A stretch of 41,232 bases of DNA, from the NCBI GenBank assembly GCA_016867095.1, contig VGKK01000001.1, positions 1-41,232 on the forward strand, in the 5' to 3' direction. Under the pieces are notes generated by a model. That model searched no databases. It was not told the DNA's origin and saw only the letters and a list, made by a program, of their open reading frames with translations. A program made the position numbers and the translations under genes. How positions within the stretch are numbered: the first letter of the stretch is position 1; each line of letters opens with the position of its first letter. This DNA is from Candidatus Omnitrophota bacterium. Its GTDB lineage: Bacteria; Omnitrophota; Gorgyraeia; Gygaellales; Profunditerraquicolaceae. Below are positions 18,695 through 36,746 of the stretch, piece by piece.

Positions 18695-19039
18695 TCAATA
18701 ACTTATGAGCCCAGAAAGCATTTTACAAATATCTTCCAATTCGCTCTTAAGCATCGTGCCTTTATCAGCATTAATAAGTCCCTTGCGGCTGTAAATCTCT
18801 AAGATCGGCACACACTCAAACGCAGAACCACGTGCTATCCTGAAAAAATTTATCCTATCTGCCTTATGGTATCTTCCATTTCCTTCGGCGATATTGGTCG
18901 AAATAGATAAAGCCGCTCGATTAAGCTGATCTGCAAGGTAATAATTACCTTTTGCAAAATCTTTCGTTAATTCGCATATCTTATCTGCGAAATTAACGGC
19001 TTTTCGATAAACATCGAGTTTTTCAAATATAAATGCCAT
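18695..19039 (-). CDS. four-helix-bundle protein (23S rRNA intervening-sequence protein family, TIGR02436-like)
   Basis: 114 aa. FEKLDVYRKAVNFADKI...QLNRAALSISTNIAEGNGRYHKADRINFFRIARGSAFE is the family signature. Confidence 0.85.
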   Translation of the reverse strand: MAFIFEKLDVYRKAVNFADKICELTKDFAKGNYYLADQLNRAALSISTNIAEGNGRYHKADRINFFRIARGSAFECVPILEIYSRKGLINADKGTMLKSELEDICKMLSGLISY

Positions 19040-24043: not shown

Positions 24044-24180
24044 TAAATTACAATAAACAAATTACAAATCACAAACAATATACAATACCAAAATCACAAT
24101 GACCAAATGGTTCCATATGTAATTTTGGTCATTTGATATTTGGATTTGTTTGTAATTTGGAATTTGTGATTTGGGATTTA
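24044..24180. repeat. ACAA/TTGT heptamer-built long hairpin, empty copy (family core CAAAATCACAATGACCAAA)
   Basis: The left arm (24044-24107) is TAAATTACAATAAACAAATTACAAATCACAAACAATATACAATACCAAAATCACAATGACCAAA. The right arm (24124-24180) is TTTGGTCATTTGATATTTGGATTTGTTTGTAATTTGGAATTTGTGATTTGGGATTTA. On the minus strand a 12-codon mini-ORF (MTKITYGTIWSL*, 24094-24132) starts at the arm ATG. Confidence 0.85.
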
Positions 24181-24183
24181 ACA

Positions 24184-25242
24184 TTATAGTTTTTTTATCT
24201 TGCTTATTATTTCTTCCTCTGAGGGAATTCCGCCGCCGGAGCGGCCTAAAAATCCGACTTCTGCCTGGCCGTCAAGCGTTAACCTAACATCCTCCAGCAT
24301 CTGGCCATAAGACATCTCCGCCACTAAAAACTTTACGCGCCTGCGCGCTCGCGAATTGACGAGCCGAAAGGCATTTTCCGGAAACGGCCAGAGAGATATA
24401 GGACGAATTAACCCGACTTTCTTTGCCTTTTCTCTTAACCTTTCCACTGCTGCCCGGCAGATTCTCGCCATTGTCCCGTAAGCTACAATGATTACTTTGG
24501 CGTCGTCTAAAAACAGGCCCTCATAACGCTGCTCTCTTATTTTTATAGTTTTATATTTCTTTTGTAACAAAAGGTTGACCTTCTCTAAGTCGCCCTCTTT
24601 CATATAAAAAGATTTTACGATATTGGGCGTCCTACCTTTACAGCCGGTCAACGCCCACTTTTTATTCTGACGGGTGACGTGGTGACGTGGTGACGTGGTG
24701 ACGTGTAAAGGTTCCATCGTCTGCCCCAGCATCCCGTCGCCCAAAATAATTACGGGATTACGGTACTTATCCGCTAAATCAAAGGCCGCAGGCATAAAAT
24801 CATACGCCTCCTGCACAAAAGAAGGCGCCAAGACGATGCAATGATAATCTCCGTGGCCGCCGCTGCGCGTAGCCTGGAAATAATCGGATTGCGCCGGCCA
24901 GATATTGCCCAGGCCCGGCCCGCCCCGCATCACATCAACAATCACCGCCGGTAATTCCGCGCCTGCCATATAAGAGATGCCTTCCTGCTTCAGGCTGATA
25001 CCCGGGCTTGAAGACGAGGTCATCGCCCTTGCCCCGCAGGCCGCGGCGCCAAAGACCATGTTGATGGCGGCCAGCTCTGATTCTGCCTGGATAAACACCC
25101 CGCCTGCCTGCGGCATATGTCCGGCCATATAGGCGGGGATTTCATTCTGGGGAGTAATAGGGTAGCCGGCATAGAAACGGCAGCCTGCCTGGATCGCTCC
25201 CTCAGCCATTGCCTCGTTACCTGTCATTAATATACGTTTCAT
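24184..25242 (-). CDS. 2-oxoacid:ferredoxin oxidoreductase, alpha subunit
   Basis: 352 aa. MTGNEAMAEGAIQAGCRFYAGYPITPQNEI... is typical of KorA/VorB/PorA N-termini. Substrate not assignable. Confidence 0.9.
   Translation of the reverse strand: MKRILMTGNEAMAEGAIQAGCRFYAGYPITPQNEIPAYMAGHMPQAGGVFIQAESELAAINMVFGAAACGARAMTSSSSPGISLKQEGISYMAGAELPAVIVDVMRGGPGLGNIWPAQSDYFQATRSGGHGDYHCIVLAPSFVQEAYDFMPAAFDLADKYRNPVIILGDGMLGQTMEPLHVTTSPRHHVTRQNKKWALTGCKGRTPNIVKSFYMKEGDLEKVNLLLQKKYKTIKIREQRYEGLFLDDAKVIIVAYGTMARICRAAVERLREKAKKVGLIRPISLWPFPENAFRLVNSRARRRVKFLVAEMSYGQMLEDVRLTLDGQAEVGFLGRSGGGIPSEEEIISKIKKL
24673..24704. repeat. perfect tandem octamer array (GGTGACGT)x4 inside the alpha-subunit CDS
   Basis: Read directly. 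It encodes part of PLHVTTSPRHHVTRQ on the minus strand. Confidence 0.97.
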
Positions 25243-25248
25243 AACGTT

Positions 25249-25330
25249 GTCACCAAGTCACCATGTCACAAGGTCACCCGTTGTTCAATTTTCTGCATTG
25301 CTTTTAGGGGTGACGTAGTGACTTTGTGGC
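25249..25330. repeat. octamer-built hairpin (word GGTGAC) in the delta-alpha spacer; contains the alpha-subunit SD
   Basis: The left arm is GTCACCAA GTCACCAT GTCACAAG GTCACCCG (25249-25280). The right arm is GGGGTGAC GTAGTGAC TTTGTGGC (25307-25330). On the mRNA the last GGUGAC lies 6 nt before the alpha-subunit AUG (25242). Confidence 0.85.
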
Positions 25331-25548: not shown

Positions 25549-27405
25549 TTACCTCGTCAGCAACTTAATCTTATGCGCTATTGCCGCAGCCGTCAACCCA
25601 TATTTTTCCAGGAGGGCCTCTCTTTTTCCGTGCGCGATAAATTCGTCGGGCAGGCCTAATTTGATTGTCGGCCTGCCTATCGCCTCGCTCAGCGCGCTGC
25701 CAAATCCGCCTTCCACAATGCCCTCTTCCGCGGTAAAAATAACTTTTGTTTTTTCGGCCAAGCCCAAAAATAAATCTTTATCCAACGGCTTTACAAAACG
25801 CGCGTTAATCAAGGCGCCTCTTAGGCCTTCCTTAGCTAATAATTCTATCGCTTCTTGAGCCGGCCTTACCATAGAACCTATCGCGGCTATCGCAAAATCC
25901 TTCCCCTCGTTCAAAACTTCCGCCTTCCCAAGCTCAATTTTTGGTGACTTGGTGACTTGGTGACTTGGTGACTTATCTTTAGGATACCTGATAGCCACCG
26001 GCTTATCCAAACCTATGGCAAATTCTAACATCGCCTCCAATTCCTCCCCATCTTTAGGCGCCATAATCACTAAATTGGGGATGCTTCTTAAAAAAGCCAG
26101 GTCAAAAATTCCCTGATGCGTTACGCCATCCTCTCCGACTATGCCTGCCCGGTCAAGGCAAAAAATCACCGGCAGGCCCTGCAGGGCCGCCTCTTCCATA
26201 ATCTGGTCGTAAGCCCTCTGCAAAAAGGTGGAATATACCGCCACTACCGGCTTAAGGCCTATTTTTGCCAGGCCCGCGGCAAAGCATACCGCATGTTGTT
26301 CGGCAATGCCCACATCAAAAAATCTTTCCGGATAGGCATCGCGGAATTTATCCAGGCCTGTGCCTTCGGGCATGGCCGCGGTAACGGCAACAATCTTTTT
26401 ATCCTCCCGGGCCAAATCCACTAATTTCCGGCTAAAGACTTCGGTATAAGTGGGACTTTGTATCCCCTCTTTAGGCAAGGCCTGCCCGCTCTTTATATCA
26501 AAGCGTCCGGCGCCATGGAACCTGACCGGGTCGCTTTCCGCCGGAAGATAACCTTTGCCTTTCTTGGTGACCACATGCAGCAACCTCGGCCCTTTAATAT
26601 ACAAGATATTCTTTAGCGTCGGCACTAAAACATTTAAGTCATGGCCGTCAATAGGCCCGAAATAACGGAATCCCAATTCCTCAAAAAACATTCCCGGGAC
26701 AAACAATCCTTTTAAGCCCTCTTCAAATTTATTGGCGATTTTTATCAGGCGGCTCCCTTTAGGCAGGCGCGACTTGGCAAAACCCTCCAAAGACCCCTTA
26801 AAACGATTGTATATCGGTAAAGAGATGAGTTTATTCAGGTATGTGCTTAAAGCGCCGACATTGGGGGCGATACTCAATTCATTGGTATTTAAAATAACTA
26901 AAATATCTTTCTTGAGGTGGCCGGTATTATTCAGCCCCTCAAAACACAAACCCCCGCTTAAAGAGCCGTCGCCGATTACCGCCACTACTTTAAAATGCTG
27001 CCCCGCCCCCAGGCTGTCCCTGGCGCAGGCCAAACCCAAGGCCAAAGATACCGCAGTTGAGCTATGGCCAGTAGTAAAAGTATCGTAAGCCGACTCTGCG
27101 TAAGACGGGAATCCGCTCACGCCCTGATATTGACGAAGGCTGGAAAAATCCTTGTTTCGTCCGGTTAAAATTTTATGCGCGTAGGCCTGGTGGCCGACGT
27201 CAAAGATTATTTTATCTTCGGGGCAATTTAAACAATAATGCAGCGCCACAATCAGCTCCACCGCGCCCAGGCTTGAGGCGAGGTGCCCCCCCGAAGAAGA
27301 AACTACCTCAATCATCCGCTCTCTAATTTCAGCGGCTAATTGCGGCAGCTTTTCCAAGGAAAGTTTTTTTAAATCCTGGGGTGAATTAATCTGGTCTAAT
27401 ATCAT
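25549..27405 (-). CDS. dxs: 1-deoxy-D-xylulose-5-phosphate synthase
   Basis: 618 aa. Has GGHLASSLGAVELIVALH, DVGHQAYAHKILTGR, the TPP motif GDGSLSGGLCFEGLNN, and DVGIAEQHAV. Confidence 0.93.
   Translation of the reverse strand: MILDQINSPQDLKKLSLEKLPQLAAEIRERMIEVVSSSGGHLASSLGAVELIVALHYCLNCPEDKIIFDVGHQAYAHKILTGRNKDFSSLRQYQGVSGFPSYAESAYDTFTTGHSSTAVSLALGLACARDSLGAGQHFKVVAVIGDGSLSGGLCFEGLNNTGHLKKDILVILNTNELSIAPNVGALSTYLNKLISLPIYNRFKGSLEGFAKSRLPKGSRLIKIANKFEEGLKGLFVPGMFFEELGFRYFGPIDGHDLNVLVPTLKNILYIKGPRLLHVVTKKGKGYLPAESDPVRFHGAGRFDIKSGQALPKEGIQSPTYTEVFSRKLVDLAREDKKIVAVTAAMPEGTGLDKFRDAYPERFFDVGIAEQHAVCFAAGLAKIGLKPVVAVYSTFLQRAYDQIMEEAALQGLPVIFCLDRAGIVGEDGVTHQGIFDLAFLRSIPNLVIMAPKDGEELEAMLEFAIGLDKPVAIRYPKDKSPSHQVTKSPKIELGKAEVLNEGKDFAIAAIGSMVRPAQEAIELLAKEGLRGALINARFVKPLDKDLFLGLAEKTKVIFTAEEGIVEGGFGSALSEAIGRPTIKLGLPDEFIAHGKREALLEKYGLTAAAIAHKIKLLTR
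25943..25974. repeat. perfect tandem octamer array (GGTGACTT)x4 inside the dxs CDS
   Basis: Read directly. It encodes part of YPKDKSPSHQVTKSPKIELGK on the minus strand. Confidence 0.97.
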
Positions 27406-28853: not shown

Positions 28854-30749
28854 CTATTCTTTTTTTACTTGCGTGGCAGCTGTAGTATCAGACGTTTTCT
28901 CTGCGGGCTGAGCCGCATCCGTCACTTGGGCTGGGGCCTGCGGCGCAACTGCTTCCGGCTCCCTGGGTTTTGGCTTTAAGATAATCAAATTAACCGAATA
29001 AGGGGCCAGGGTCAATATCTCTTCATATAAATCAGCGGCCGGATGGATTTCTTTTTCTTCTGCGGGAATAAATTTGCAATTACTGCTGCAGGAGGAATCT
29101 ACGAGGTACCTCTGGTAGAGGTAATTCTCCTTAAGGTTCTTAATGCCTAATTTTAAATTACGGCTGGCGGACTTGAATTTTGCCGCCCTATCGCTTAATT
29201 CCTTGGCTTTTTTCAATACGGCCCTTGTTTTACCCGTCAGTGCTAAACGGGAAGGCTCTAATTGGCCCTGCATAATCCTGTCCAGCCTGTCCGTCTTAAT
29301 CAAGTTTAATAACGCCTTTCTCTCCGCGCTCTTTAGGCTGCCGAGGACCCTGGATAAATAACCTATTACGGCCTCCGGGTCAATATAATTATAAATTAAT
29401 AGCGCGACGCTGTCTTTGCCCTGGGTGGCGATGACCCCGCAAAACTCATCCTTAAATTTATCCGAAGACAAAAACAGGTTATCCCCCAAAAGCCCCAGCA
29501 TCCGGAAAGTATTGTAACTGGCCTTGGGCCCGCCCTTGTATTCGGAAGATTCAGAATCAAACCAAAAGATGCCTGTATTTCTGATTACGCCTTCCTTGTT
29601 GTTCTGGAAATCTTCCAGGGAAAAATAAAGCTGGTAACTAAGCCCGGCCTCGCGCATATTCCTTAAGCGGGCGGGAATATAGCTGGCCGCGATAAAAGAC
29701 TCCTCTTTTCTTTCCGGCAAGACATTTATGCCCCGGTCATAATTCCATTCATCAACAATAAGGGGGGTATTCTTGTCAAAACGAAAATAGGTCAGCCAAT
29801 CCCGGACCAGGCTGACCGAAAACTTATTATAAATAGTGGCCTGCTTCTCTGCCTGGGGGTCGCTGGAAAAGCCGTGCCAGCTGATAAAGTCTAACGGCAG
29901 CCGGTTTCTGTGGCAAAATTGAATGAGTTCGTAAATCAGGCTTCTCTCCGGGGTAACAATGGTATTGCCGTCAAAATTCTGGAACCACCAGCTGGTGCTC
30001 GGGCCGCCCAGGGGAATATGTATTTTCGTCTCTGCCTCTAATTCCTTTACTGCCTCGGCGATTGCGCGGTATAAATTAAGGTATTCCTGTTTCCGGCCTA
30101 AAAAGAAATCCTCTAAATCCGGCGCGCTCCAGACTTCATACCAGATATTATACTTTTTGTCGCAGCTTAAATGCCGGATATGGCGCTTGATTAGATCTTT
30201 AAACGCCTTTAAATTCTGGGGCAGGCTTCTTTTATCCAGCACCTTGCCCAAGCCCGCAGGCGTGCCGAATATATCCAGGATGACTGTCCCGCCCGCCTCA
30301 TTAATATTGCTGATTATCTTTTCATAATTGCCTAATAAGCTGTTCTGTAAATTTTTATTTTTGGTGAACTGGCTAATCTCCCAGAAATTATACTGGATAC
30401 GGTAGAGCCCTTTAAAACCGACGGCCTTTTGCCACTCATCAATGGCTGCGCTTGCCGCTATCTGCTGCGGCCAGATGCTGTCGCGATGGAACCCCCGGCC
30501 GCTTAAATCAATATTCGGCCGGAAAATATTCGGCAAGGGGACGGTCGCGGAGGCAATGTCTAAAGTAAATTCTAATTCATCGGATTGCTGGCCGTAAGAA
30601 GGATAAATTCCAATACACAATACACAAATTACAAACAATACCAAAATCACAATACCAAAACTACGTATAAATTCTCCTGTTTTGGTCATTGTAATTTTGA
30701 AATTGGAATTTGTTTGTGATTTGTAATTTGTAATTTGGAAATTAGACAT
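28854..30749 (-). CDS. secreted clan GH-A-like (beta/alpha)8 glycoside-hydrolase-fold protein; start uncertain (30749 or 30689; the ORF track maximum is 30800)
   Basis: Has a hydrophobic signal/anchor FGIVILVLFVICVLCIGIY. NIWYEVWSAPDLEDFF occupies the place of the WE(V/I)WNEP acid/base motif, and PLIVDEWNYD is a nucleophile-like motif. The tail is Pro/Ala/Gln-rich. ATG 30749 overlaps the ymdB stop (TATAATGTCTAA). Confidence 0.55.
   Translation of the reverse strand: MSNFQITNYKSQTNSNFKITMTKTGEFIRSFGIVILVLFVICVLCIGIYPSYGQQSDELEFTLDIASATVPLPNIFRPNIDLSGRGFHRDSIWPQQIAASAAIDEWQKAVGFKGLYRIQYNFWEISQFTKNKNLQNSLLGNYEKIISNINEAGGTVILDIFGTPAGLGKVLDKRSLPQNLKAFKDLIKRHIRHLSCDKKYNIWYEVWSAPDLEDFFLGRKQEYLNLYRAIAEAVKELEAETKIHIPLGGPSTSWWFQNFDGNTIVTPERSLIYELIQFCHRNRLPLDFISWHGFSSDPQAEKQATIYNKFSVSLVRDWLTYFRFDKNTPLIVDEWNYDRGINVLPERKEESFIAASYIPARLRNMREAGLSYQLYFSLEDFQNNKEGVIRNTGIFWFDSESSEYKGGPKASYNTFRMLGLLGDNLFLSSDKFKDEFCGVIATQGKDSVALLIYNYIDPEAVIGYLSRVLGSLKSAERKALLNLIKTDRLDRIMQGQLEPSRLALTGKTRAVLKKAKELSDRAAKFKSASRNLKLGIKNLKENYLYQRYLVDSSCSSNCKFIPAEEKEIHPAADLYEEILTLAPYSVNLIILKPKPREPEAVAPQAPAQVTDAAQPAEKTSDTTAATQVKKE
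30608..30741. repeat. ACAA/TTGT heptamer-built long hairpin, copy overlapping the start of the GH-like gene
   Basis: The plus-strand left arm (30608-30660) is TTCCAATACACAATACACAAATTACAAACAATACCAAAATCACAATACCAAAA. The right arm (30680-30741) is TTTTGGTCATTGTAATTTTGAAATTGGAATTTGTTTGTGATTTGTAATTTGTAATTTGGAAA. The 16-nt block CAAAATTACAATGACC is identical to the copy at 36264-36279. Confidence 0.85.
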
Positions 30750-34852: not shown

Positions 34853-35515
34853 TTAGATTTTGTCATCTGTCATTACCATTTTATGTGGTTTTAGGCCTTT
34901 TTTATAGTCCTTCGGGCTTTGTACTTTTTTTAACGTATCCAGTTTTTTACGCTTTTCTAATTCCTGGTAAATTAACACCCAGGCGCAATCTTTGTCCTTA
35001 TCCACCTCGCACTTACCTTTATTCATCCCGCCGCAAGGGCCGTTTAATAATCCCTTGGCGCAAAGCGTAATCGGGCAAATGCCGCCGGTAACATCCAAGA
35101 CACATTCTCCGCAAAGAGAACATTTTTCATAAAAATTACCCTGGGCATCCATTACCGCGCCGAATAAGGTATTGCAGGCGGGTATGGCTACTAAGCCCAG
35201 CCGGTCATTATCCTTGACTGATTGCACTCCCAAGCCGCAGGCCAAAACTAAAATTGCCTCAGCTTCGCGCCAGGCCTTTGTATTCTTGGCTATTTCGGTC
35301 TTGATTTGGCTGGCCACGCAAGGCGCGGAAGGAATACACATCCCCACTACGGTTTTACCCTGCGCCTCTAACAGCGCTTTCATTTCGGCCAATTCCGGCT
35401 CTCCGCCGGTCTTAGCGGTAGCGGCGCACTCGCCGCAGCCGACCAGGAATATCTTAGTATAGCCTTTTAAGCTATCTATAATCTGCTGAATGGGTTTCTG
35501 CTCTGTGATAATCAT
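34853..35515 (-). CDS. MetV-like protein (methylenetetrahydrofolate reductase C-terminal-domain family)
   Basis: 220 aa. CSLCGECVLDVTGGICPITLCAKGLLNGPCGGMNKGKCEVDKDKDCAW is the MTHFR_C/MetV Cys pattern. Confidence 0.7.
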   Translation of the reverse strand: MIITEQKPIQQIIDSLKGYTKIFLVGCGECAATAKTGGEPELAEMKALLEAQGKTVVGMCIPSAPCVASQIKTEIAKNTKAWREAEAILVLACGLGVQSVKDNDRLGLVAIPACNTLFGAVMDAQGNFYEKCSLCGECVLDVTGGICPITLCAKGLLNGPCGGMNKGKCEVDKDKDCAWVLIYQELEKRKKLDTLKKVQSPKDYKKGLKPHKMVMTDDKI

Positions 35516-36080
35516 CTTAGTCTCTTTAAATATTTGAGATCTTCCGAATCCTTAGGCCGACCAGCCGCGCGTTTCATTTTTATAAGATCCTTTAAGGAAG
35601 CAAAGTAAACGAAAGTGCCGCCAAATTTTGCTCTTACTTTATTTTTCCACGCCTCCTCAAAGGTTATGCCTTTTACAAAAGGATGAATATCTGTCTCTAC
35701 CGCATACTGCCGAATGAGTAATTTCTTCTGAAGCAATTCTTCTATTTTAATATCGGCTACTAAATGCCTTTAAAGCTTGCCATGTCTTTTCGGCGTTGGC
35801 TATAGTTGGCCTAATAAAAATATCAATATCTAAAGTTGCGCGGGCATATCCATGAACTGGAAAAGCGGTCGCGCCAATAATTACGAAATCTACCCTATGT
35901 TCTTTTAATGATTTCAGAAGGTTTTCGGCGTCCATTTTTTCTTAATAGACCGGCCATTTCTTTTGATTTTTTAAACATCATCTCAAAGCGTTCTTTAAGC
36001 GAAAGCGATTGCAAAAATCTTAATTCAAACTCAATTTCTTTTGCCTGATTATGCCTGCTTAACTTTAGAATCATCGTCAT
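35512..36080 (-). pseudogene. minimal nucleotidyltransferase-fold (MNT/AbiEii-like) gene split over three reading frames
   Basis: Three ORFs, 35895..36080, 35747..35935 and 35512..35736, follow each other in frames 2, 1 and 0. The middle piece has VDFVIIGATAFPVHGYARATLDIDIFI (NTase G[SA]...DxD). The last piece ends with LKDLIKMKRAAGRPKDSEDLKYL. The first junction lies in an A6 run (plus-strand T6 at 35935-35940). Confidence 0.5.
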
Positions 36081-36215
36081 TTACTCCTACTTCCATTTTA
36101 CATAGATTTTTGGAAGTATCAAGGAAATTTAAGGCGGGATTAAAACAAAGGGGCGCCTCTGTATTTGGCCTTTTTTGGGCTGATAGACCGTGAAAGGCAG
36201 GACGCCCCTTTTATT

Positions 36216-36692
36216 AAATAACAAATTCCAAATCACAAATTACAAACAATATACAAATCCAAAATTACAATGACCGAAACTTCTCTATTGTGCCTTGCAA
36301 ATAATAGCGGTAAATATATTCCTCAACTCTTGCGATTCTTTAATAAACGTAATGATTTCCCCTGTGAAGCCTGATTGGCTTGCTTTAATAGTTCTAACCA
36401 ATAGCTGCTTTCCTTGCATTCCTTTCTTGTAATCTTCATTCTATGTATAAAATCCTTCTTGCTTAATGCCTCATTTGCCTCTCTGTAATTTGCGCCCACG
36501 GAACCGGAGGCATCTATTAGTTGGCCAATTAATCTTAAGTTAATCACGTCTTTTGGCAACTTACCGCATAACCTAATTATCCCTTTGGAAAATTCCAAAG
36601 TCCTTTCTTCTAAATTATATATTTTGCTTTGGTATTCGGTCATTTGGTATTGTAATTTGTTTGTAATTTGTATATTGTGTATTGTGATTTAA
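36216..36692. mobile_element. IVS-like cassette: ACAA/TTGT long inverted repeat with a four-helix-bundle gene as loop cargo
   Basis: The left arm (36216-36279) is ...CCAAATCACAAATTACAAACAATATACAAATCCAAAATTACAATGACCGAAA. The right arm (36635-36692) is TTCGGTCATTTGGTATTGTAATTTGTTTGTAATTTGTATATTGTGTATTGTGATTTAA. The inner ends are ATGACCGAA and TTCGGTCAT. The arms are homologous to the elements at 24044-24180 and 30608-30741. Calling it mobile is an inference. Confidence 0.6.
36323..36643 (-). CDS. four-helix-bundle protein (23S rRNA intervening-sequence protein family)
   Basis: 106 aa. LEERTLEFSKGIIRLCGKLP...QLIDASGSVGANYREANEALSKKDFIHRMKITRKECKESSYWLELL is the family signature. Its start codon ATGACCGAA is the inner end of the repeat arm. 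Confidence 0.85.
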   Translation of the reverse strand: MTEYQSKIYNLEERTLEFSKGIIRLCGKLPKDVINLRLIGQLIDASGSVGANYREANEALSKKDFIHRMKITRKECKESSYWLELLKQANQASQGKSLRLLKNRKS

Positions 36693-36746
36693 CCTCTACC
36701 ACTATAATAGACGTGGTTACCCATCAAATCTAACACCTATTTTTTA

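Follow-up and report, generated by a model that had tools for sequence, protein, structure and literature searches.

The locus at 36214-36692 of the window (the whole 41,232-nt stretch of DNA analysed here) is probably one copy, now in decay, of a discrete cassette with hairpin ends and a four-helix-bundle (4HB) gene, and the gene-less hairpins of the same genome are probably the short form of this cassette. Our best reading is that the unit looks like a mobile element of the kind represented by the intervening sequences (IVSs) of 23S rRNA, with derivatives that look like MITEs; its mobility we infer. What is new here is the frameshift in the gene, the exact ends of the unit in its relatives, the ~30 gene-less copies, the generality of the bracketing for the PF05635 family, and the failure of our searches to detect RNase III in this genome and 40 relatives.

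To our knowledge, the 23S rRNA IVSs and their S23p/four-helix-bundle ORF have stood unexplained since the early 1990s. We found no description of the armed PF05635 design outside rRNA in the literature. The present locus provides a clean genomic case outside rRNA, with exact unit ends, relatives with full-length ORFs in unrelated contexts and, within one small genome, gene-less derivatives. The mobility of the unit and the action of the protein on its own repeats thereby become testable questions, and the widespread, unexplained heptamer arrays of bacteria are linked to a gene family. Because the host lineage appears to be without RNase III, the RNase III model derived from rRNA cannot be general.

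Inverted heptamer arrays enclose a four-helix-bundle gene

The host genome (Omnitrophota, 1.19 Mb, 166 contigs, 91% complete, 46.6% G+C) was scanned for long-range inverted repeats by k-mers. The cassette and its arms lie as follows:

36214..36692, minus strand: whole cassette, 479 bp, made of the 5' arm, the four-helix-bundle gene and the 3' arm; delimited by blastn to eight metagenome relatives
36635..36692, minus strand: arm on the 5' side of the gene, ~7 heptamer words built around CAAAT, the last block being the start-codon block ATGACCGAA (36643-36635)
36214..36279, minus strand: 3' arm (in gene sense), with the inner end TTTCGGTCAT, which pairs with the start-codon block

The original prediction held that inverted arms surround a loop of ~355 nt filled by an ORF, and the measurements bear this out. 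The arms have a 50-nt core with 76% complementarity at a separation of 379 nt, and the 355-nt loop between them is nearly all one ORF. Cassette termini read TAAATYACAA...TTGTRATTTA in the aligned copies. The start codon does lie within the arm, as had been proposed: the first three codons of the ORF, ATGACCGAA, form the inner end of the arm at 36643-36635, and their complement, TTCGGTCAT, is found at 36271-36279. The arms also pair better than shuffled controls. They are paired in the minimum free energy (MFE) fold of the RNA (z -2.85, with 1 of 100 shuffles equally good) and in that of the single-stranded DNA (z -4.34, with 0 of 100 shuffles equally good). When the two flanks of each ORF were compared, this gene had an inverted-repeat score of 21, which placed it fourth among 1034 ORFs (genome-wide median 8, 99th percentile 15.3). 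Arm complementarity, pairing in the MFE folds, the genome-high inverted-repeat score and the matches of the protein to PF05635 and TIGR02436 together confirm the observation.

The cassette is located in an operon spacer, between a 1494-aa ORF and a broken nucleotidyltransferase gene, rather than in 23S rRNA helix 25 or 45, and the neighbours of the PF05635 gene have the same orientation as the gene itself. No LSU rRNA is assembled in the host genome. The cassette holds no recognisable transposase, the PF05635 protein being its sole ORF.

The gene has lost its last helix to a frameshift

Two reading frames of the minus strand share the domain:

36323..36643, minus strand: annotated 106-aa ORF of the PF05635/TIGR02436 family, covering profile positions 8-94 of 106 only
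36285..36419, minus strand: shifted frame with the missing C-terminal helix (...GEIITFIKESQELRNIFTAIICKAQ*), recognised by local BLOSUM62 scores against homologue C-termini

The 106-aa ORF scored 57.6 bits against PF05635 (cut-off 33.8) and 69.2 bits against TIGR02436 (cut-off 24). Its assignment to the IVS protein family thus stood, with the correction that it is read from the minus strand; the frameshift had escaped the original prediction. The PF05635 domain is not complete in one frame, as the profile match ends at position 94 of 106 and the last helix is found in another frame. Compared with the C-termini of four homologues, the shifted frame gave local BLOSUM62 scores of 37-41, versus 15-22 for the annotated frame, and the frameshift was placed at ~36375-36390. 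An intact reading would stop at 36285-36287, which is 5 nt from the 3' arm; in its ancestral form the ORF thus took up the loop exactly.

JGI 3300020083, JGI 3300020084 and Logan SRR7008010 encode this 106-aa product as well. Identity to the present sequence extends through all of the 1.1 kb compared in both JGI contigs, and through the 678 bp covered by the Logan contig. Since the same broken sequence is present in three other assemblies, the frameshift is not a local assembly slip. When filled and empty versions were looked for among these three assemblies of the same population, no insert-free allele was found, all three being identical. We call this copy of the cassette decaying because the frameshift costs it the last helix. 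Among solved structures, the closest in sequence is 2rld, an uncharacterised protein (E 1.6e-10).

Gene and arms form one unit in metagenome relatives

A scan of metagenome contigs yielded 80 relatives of the 106-aa protein, with protein identities of 55-86%. In the 16 closest relatives, which we inspected, the ORFs were 116-145 aa long and one had an in-frame stop. The proteins of the relatives end in ...ESQELRNIFTSIIDKSK*, matching the shifted frame of the present locus. Every inspected relative with at least 70% identity carried ACAAAT-word arms and an ATGACCRAA / TTYGGTCAT core, ATGACCRAA being located at the gene start and TTTCGGTCAT directly 3' of the stop. Of nine relatives checked for the position of the arm, most have its outer end ~48 nt ahead of the ATG, and the flank inverted-repeat score reached at least 15 in 56 of the 76 loci for which both flanks were available.

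To delimit the unit, the locus was compared by blastn with eight relatives, all with a full-length ORF and one of them with an in-frame stop. The alignments run from 36690-36695 (36670 in one case) down to 36214-36221 and then end. Beyond these points, tblastx found no similarity between the flanks of the present locus and those of the relatives. The flanks of most relatives are also unlike one another, with a few having a neighbouring gene family in common (L117/L118/L130). Because homology with the eight relatives ends at the outer ends of the arms and the flanks are unrelated, the unit is discrete. Conserved inverted termini in unrelated genomic contexts, as are characteristic of a discrete unit of the TIR-transposon type, are both found here. 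No direct repeat or target-site duplication was seen around the eight aligned copies, which were compared with one another.

At the level of sequence comparison, these data show that gene and arms are co-inherited as one discrete unit with exact boundaries, and the homology pattern at 36214-36692 is the signature that a putatively insertable, discrete unit would leave. Part of the spread could be vertical or site-preferring, because some relatives have a neighbouring gene family in common.

Gene-less hairpins of the same family

The window contains two further members of the hairpin family:

24044..24180, no strand assigned: gene-less hairpin (core ACAATGACCAAA, 16-nt loop, TTTGGTCATT) that fills the spacer between two minus-strand genes
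30611..30740, no strand assigned: second gene-less hairpin copy in the window

The hairpin at 24044-24180 had been described as an empty version of the cassette hairpin. It proved to be one (fold z -4.40), and it is accompanied by the copy at 30611-30740, the third in the window, and by ~27 complete copies on other contigs. Blastn with the arms found ~30 further hairpins genome-wide, nearly all of them gene-less with a loop of 10-50 nt. The blocks common to the family are the outer end TAAATYACAA, the central ACAAACAA and the inner palindromic core ACAATGACCRAA / TTYGGTCATTGT. The arm of the filled copy is 88-92% identical to the arms of other copies, versus 76% complementarity to its own partner. 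Some hairpins form subfamilies with a common loop sequence (for example C11:15396, C16:4103, C28:328 and C109:3561), showing that hairpins were copied as whole units. The gene-less hairpins occupy spacers to within 0-40 nt of the adjacent ORFs, and we found no bias in their orientation relative to the flanking genes.

Weaker matches to the hairpin family were present in 15 of 60 related genomes. One relative, G043 (96% complete, 2 contigs), holds one filled and at least six gene-less copies, built from its own words, AAACYCT. In its filled copy (L114, G043:C1:1174100-1174850), arm words themselves supply the first eight codons (MTQTQNPKP) and pair with the sequence immediately 3' of the stop. 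At two other loci, L128 and L130, the ORF reads through the entire arm. When gene-less loops were searched for remnants of the gene, a single G043 copy gave a 7-nt match (CAAGTAA), and one subfamily in the present genome was weakly similar at TACCAAA. These loop matches are too weak to tell the direction of descent.

Inverted word arrays bracket PF05635 genes in many genomes

A second gene of the family is located in the window, with a hairpin beside it:

18695..19039, minus strand: second PF05635 gene, 114 aa, apparently intact, PF05635 score 106 bits
19045..19119, minus strand: TCGAAAA-word hairpin, wholly upstream of the second PF05635 gene and not bracketing it, z -2.78

The claim that this gene is preceded by a different word-built hairpin held, and the hairpin lies wholly upstream. 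We catalogued the PF05635 genes of the host genome. Four of the six are bracketed by inverted word arrays, each with a word of its own (GTCACCN, GTCACAAGT, an ACCGGT-type word and ACAAAT). The remaining two, the paralogues at C1:18695-19039 and on C79, have a TCGAAAA-word hairpin wholly upstream instead. The expectation that the family members of this genome are flanked by inverted word repeats is therefore borne out by four genes and contradicted in part by these two paralogues, which are not bracketed. The C79 paralogue (C79:453-767) contains an in-frame TAG; together with the frameshift in the cassette gene, this makes two broken genes among the six.

The broader idea that the gene family rides on word-built hairpins gained support outside the host genome. 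In nine related genomes, all 15 homologues are tightly bracketed (z 3-14 versus shuffles). We then used an alignment of three proteins as the query and obtained 78 loci spanning Omnitrophota, Planctomycetota, Verrucomicrobiota, Cyanobacteria, Bacteroidota, Desulfobacterota, Gammaproteobacteria, Patescibacteria and others. An inverted-repeat score of at least 15 was reached by 44 of these 78 loci from many phyla, versus 1 of 150 shifted controls. Across genomes, a given word stays with a given protein subfamily: ACAAAT with ANYREANE, AAACYCT with ANYIEAEE, AATGACK with ANYCEADD and GARTKAT/AAGTTAT with GANIEEA.

Word arrays are not confined to this family. The host genome contains ~250 of them, and matching inverted arrays loosely bracket an MTAP-like gene (C18:1897-2757), a trmD-like gene (C51:4419-5144) and a pilT-like gene (C108:2309-3382), where they sit in both spacers at 4-65 nt from the ORF ends. 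Since such genes are sometimes bracketed, arrays can arise beside genes without a cassette. Arms that hug both start and stop were seen only at the 4HB genes and at one GIY-YIG gene.

RNase III and the pairing of the arms

By analogy with rRNA IVSs, the original prediction proposed that cleavage of the stem might liberate or regulate the mRNA. No RNase III domain was found in the host genome with PF14622 or PF00636, and PF14622 had no match in any of 41 genomes (the host and 40 relatives of the same order, 21 of the 41 being at least 90% complete). With TIGR02191, RNase III was detected in 75 of the 121 phylum genomes, showing that the search works, and in 0 of 8 genomes of the host's taxonomic family. 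Judged from these profile searches, RNase III appears to have been lost in this lineage. PF05635 genes are present in genomes both with and without RNase III.

We aligned nine cassettes. Their paired columns are the invariant word cores (CAAAT/ATTTG), whereas the variable positions are mismatched and uncompensated, so that the stem is a periodic run of 4-6-bp helices at the invariant cores. Double changes occurred in only 4 of 33 pairs, and with covariation this weak we claim no selected RNA structure. Across 83 cassettes, sense-strand G.U pairs were not in excess over A.C mismatches (92 sense-type versus 107 antisense-type), and 432 of 631 mismatches were transversions at degenerate word positions. 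These results leave IVS-like cleavage of the stem unsupported here: RNase III went undetected, and pairing is confined to the invariant word cores, with no G.U bias.

The genome also contains arrays of an octamer, GTCACNNN, with at least four units each (in the window, for example, at 24674-24702, 25249-25277 and 25944-25972). Counted for this one word and with phylogeny ignored, the arrays are multi-copy only where RNase III is undetected (42 in the host genome, G000; 18 in G173, 9 in G070, 4 in G118 and 2 in G122) and number at most one in genomes with RNase III. RNase III loss could be linked with the load of hairpins and arrays, going by the GTCACNNN word with kinship ignored.

How the unit may work, and alternative readings

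On the preferred reading of a cassette with gene-less short forms, ~7 tandem 7-nt words per arm, with an invariant CAAAT core, enclose a four-helix-bundle gene of the 23S-IVS/Avd family. The start codon and the first codons belong to one arm, and the stop abuts the other. Gene and arms are inherited, and in evolutionary time would have moved, as a single unit; relatives with full-length ORFs do carry the same arms in contexts unrelated to the present one. The ~30 gene-less hairpins would descend from a gene-bearing copy and would be analogous to MITEs beside a full-length transposon; alternatively, the gene may have entered an existing hairpin. Folding of the arms, either in the transcript or in DNA that is single-stranded, can bury the start codon. 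RNase III is unlikely to excise the unit in this lineage, where no gene for the enzyme was found. Speaking against mobility, no movement, empty site or presence/absence polymorphism was seen, the three same-population assemblies being identical.

How the arms act can be read in other ways. A long double-stranded stem in the operon transcript, cut by a double-strand-specific RNase so as to liberate or regulate the 4HB mRNA, would accord with the pairing of the arms in the predicted RNA fold, with the common orientation of the gene and its neighbours, and with the cutting of the homologous Coxiella IVS stem by RNase III (PMC4990558). Yet RNase III was undetected in the host genome (PF14622, PF00636), in the 40 relatives searched with PF14622 and in the 8 family members searched with TIGR02191, the stem consists of short helices with uncompensated mismatches between them, the sense strand has no excess of G.U pairs, and the gene-less copies have no orientation bias; we consider such an RNA-processing cassette distinctly improbable. 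The conserved feature of the arms is the word rather than the pair, so the arrays are possibly binding sites. It is conceivable, although we would not favour it, that they are candidate sites for the 4HB protein or for a host protein, like the subterminal repeats of some transposons, and that arm complementarity is a by-product. The invariance of the word core alone, the predominance of transversions at degenerate positions, and an arm that matches the arms of other copies more closely than it complements its own partner would all fit. So would the retention of its own word by each protein subfamily, but this co-variation of word and protein is equally expected from simple co-inheritance. The binding-site reading is compatible with the cassette reading and does not exclude it.

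Two further alternatives would deprive the gene of its role in the unit. The hairpins might be REPIN-like repeats that the one Y1 (RAYT/IS200-like) transposase of this genome mobilises in trans, the 4HB gene being a passenger in one copy. They are indeed palindromic, intergenic and 100-150 nt long, with no visible target duplication, as is the case for REPINs, and the genome does encode one PF01797 protein (160 aa, G000:C66:3006-3488, 64.6 bits), whose gene itself lies between inverted repeats. Those repeats (TTAGCACCGTTTGCAAAC...), however, are unrelated to the ACAAAT words and occur only one to three times, the gene is more than an occasional passenger (its arms are retained in relatives of 55-86% identity), and a GTAG-type REP head was not noted. 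With the RAYT-like gene flanked by repeats other than those of the hairpin, we ruled against a RAYT-driven REPIN, and the passenger reading as a whole appears improbable. That an ordinary small gene happens to sit between two spacers holding the commonest words of the genome is harder still to credit. The ~250 word arrays and the housekeeping genes bracketed by matching arrays make such coincidences conceivable, but chance does not predict that the ends of the arms mark exactly where homology with eight relatives stops, that the arms lie within 0-5 nt of the start and of the intact-frame stop, that the start codon is inside a conserved palindromic core, or that bracketing is enriched as strongly as 44 of 78 versus 1 of 150. 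It is contradicted already by the arms of the relatives, their unrelated flanks and the exact ends of homology.

The cassette reading can be extended to a mechanism, which we offer as a speculative and rather unlikely proposal. The 4HB protein would be the mobility or copying factor of the element; it would bind the arms of its element through their 7-nt words and, helped by replication or repair functions of the host, propagate both filled and gene-less hairpins. Such elements would form a class of prokaryotic mobile element that lacks a canonical transposase, with the 23S rRNA IVSs as its rRNA insertions, and their spread may be favoured by RNase III loss.

Relation to known repeats and gene families

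Palindromic intergenic repeats include REP/REPIN-RAYT, Correia, ERIC and RPE sequences, and MITEs accompany full-length transposons. The present family resembles these in that gene-less copies with inverted-repeat ends (~30) far outnumber the one gene-bearing copy with the same ends, and in that its members are intergenic, tightly packed and copied as whole units in subfamilies. Unlike a MITE and its transposon, the unit encodes no DDE, HUH or serine/tyrosine recombinase, only a four-helix-bundle protein of ~120 aa; a target-site duplication was not seen, and the termini are arrays of 7-nt words.

The likeness to the ORF-bearing IVSs of 23S rRNA in Leptospira and Coxiella is closer in design. 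In both, a long terminal inverted repeat encloses a PF05635 ORF as its loop, tandem heptamers stand directly upstream of the start codon, a good Shine-Dalgarno sequence is absent, and the ORF is often decaying, with a sporadic distribution and a proposed mobility. In Coxiella burnetii, the S23p ORF of the IVS lies in the helix 45 stem and is preceded by three tandem GACAGAT units before the start codon (Warrier et al. 2016, PMC4990558); the IVS is excised by RNase III, its ORF has decayed, and it has been proposed to be a mobile relic (PMC4990558). The present unit differs in being located between protein-coding genes, in its much longer word-array arms, in having ~30 gene-less copies in the genome, and in a lineage apparently without RNase III.

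STRRs and other heptamer repeats, such as GGGNATC, are known from cyanobacteria and Xanthomonas (Rehm et al. 2015, PMC4692102). Like the present arrays, they consist of tandem 7-nt units, are enriched between co-directional genes, are transcribed and vary in copy number (PMC4692102). The reports name no associated gene family, however, and describe no inverted pairs enclosing a gene (PMC4692102). Avd belongs to the same Pfam family; it too is small, basic and folded as a helical bundle, and it works together with nucleic acid (PMC10053308, PMC6182149). In contrast to the setting of Avd, the present genome has no PF00078 match and no template/variable repeat context, and the nearest structure is 2rld, not Avd. 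We therefore ruled out that the gene is the Avd accessory of a diversity-generating retroelement (DGR), the PF00078 reverse transcriptase not having been found in this genome, which is 91% complete.

Other genes beside hairpins

Some further loci of the host genome were recorded in passing. At C14:12585-12902, a 105-aa ORF of GIY-YIG type has an 18-nt inverted repeat (TCCCGACATTTGTCTAAA) within 2 nt on each side; besides the 4HB genes, it represents another type of small gene placed in a hairpin. The top inverted-repeat score of the genome belongs to a 795-aa ORF at C10:3122-5509, whose translation, the sole basis for this reading, resembles that of outer-membrane assembly proteins. On both sides the ORF has one and the same perfect 53-nt sequence (CCCCCACACCAATTG...CAATTGGTGTGGGGG), itself a hairpin.

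Just downstream of the cassette, at 35512-35935 of the window, a nucleotidyltransferase gene of the DUF2204/DUF6036 type is split into ORFs of 62 and 74 aa and is probably a pseudogene. On C79, an intact-looking gene, apparently of the same nucleotidyltransferase kind as judged from its translation only, lies 3' of the 4HB paralogue.
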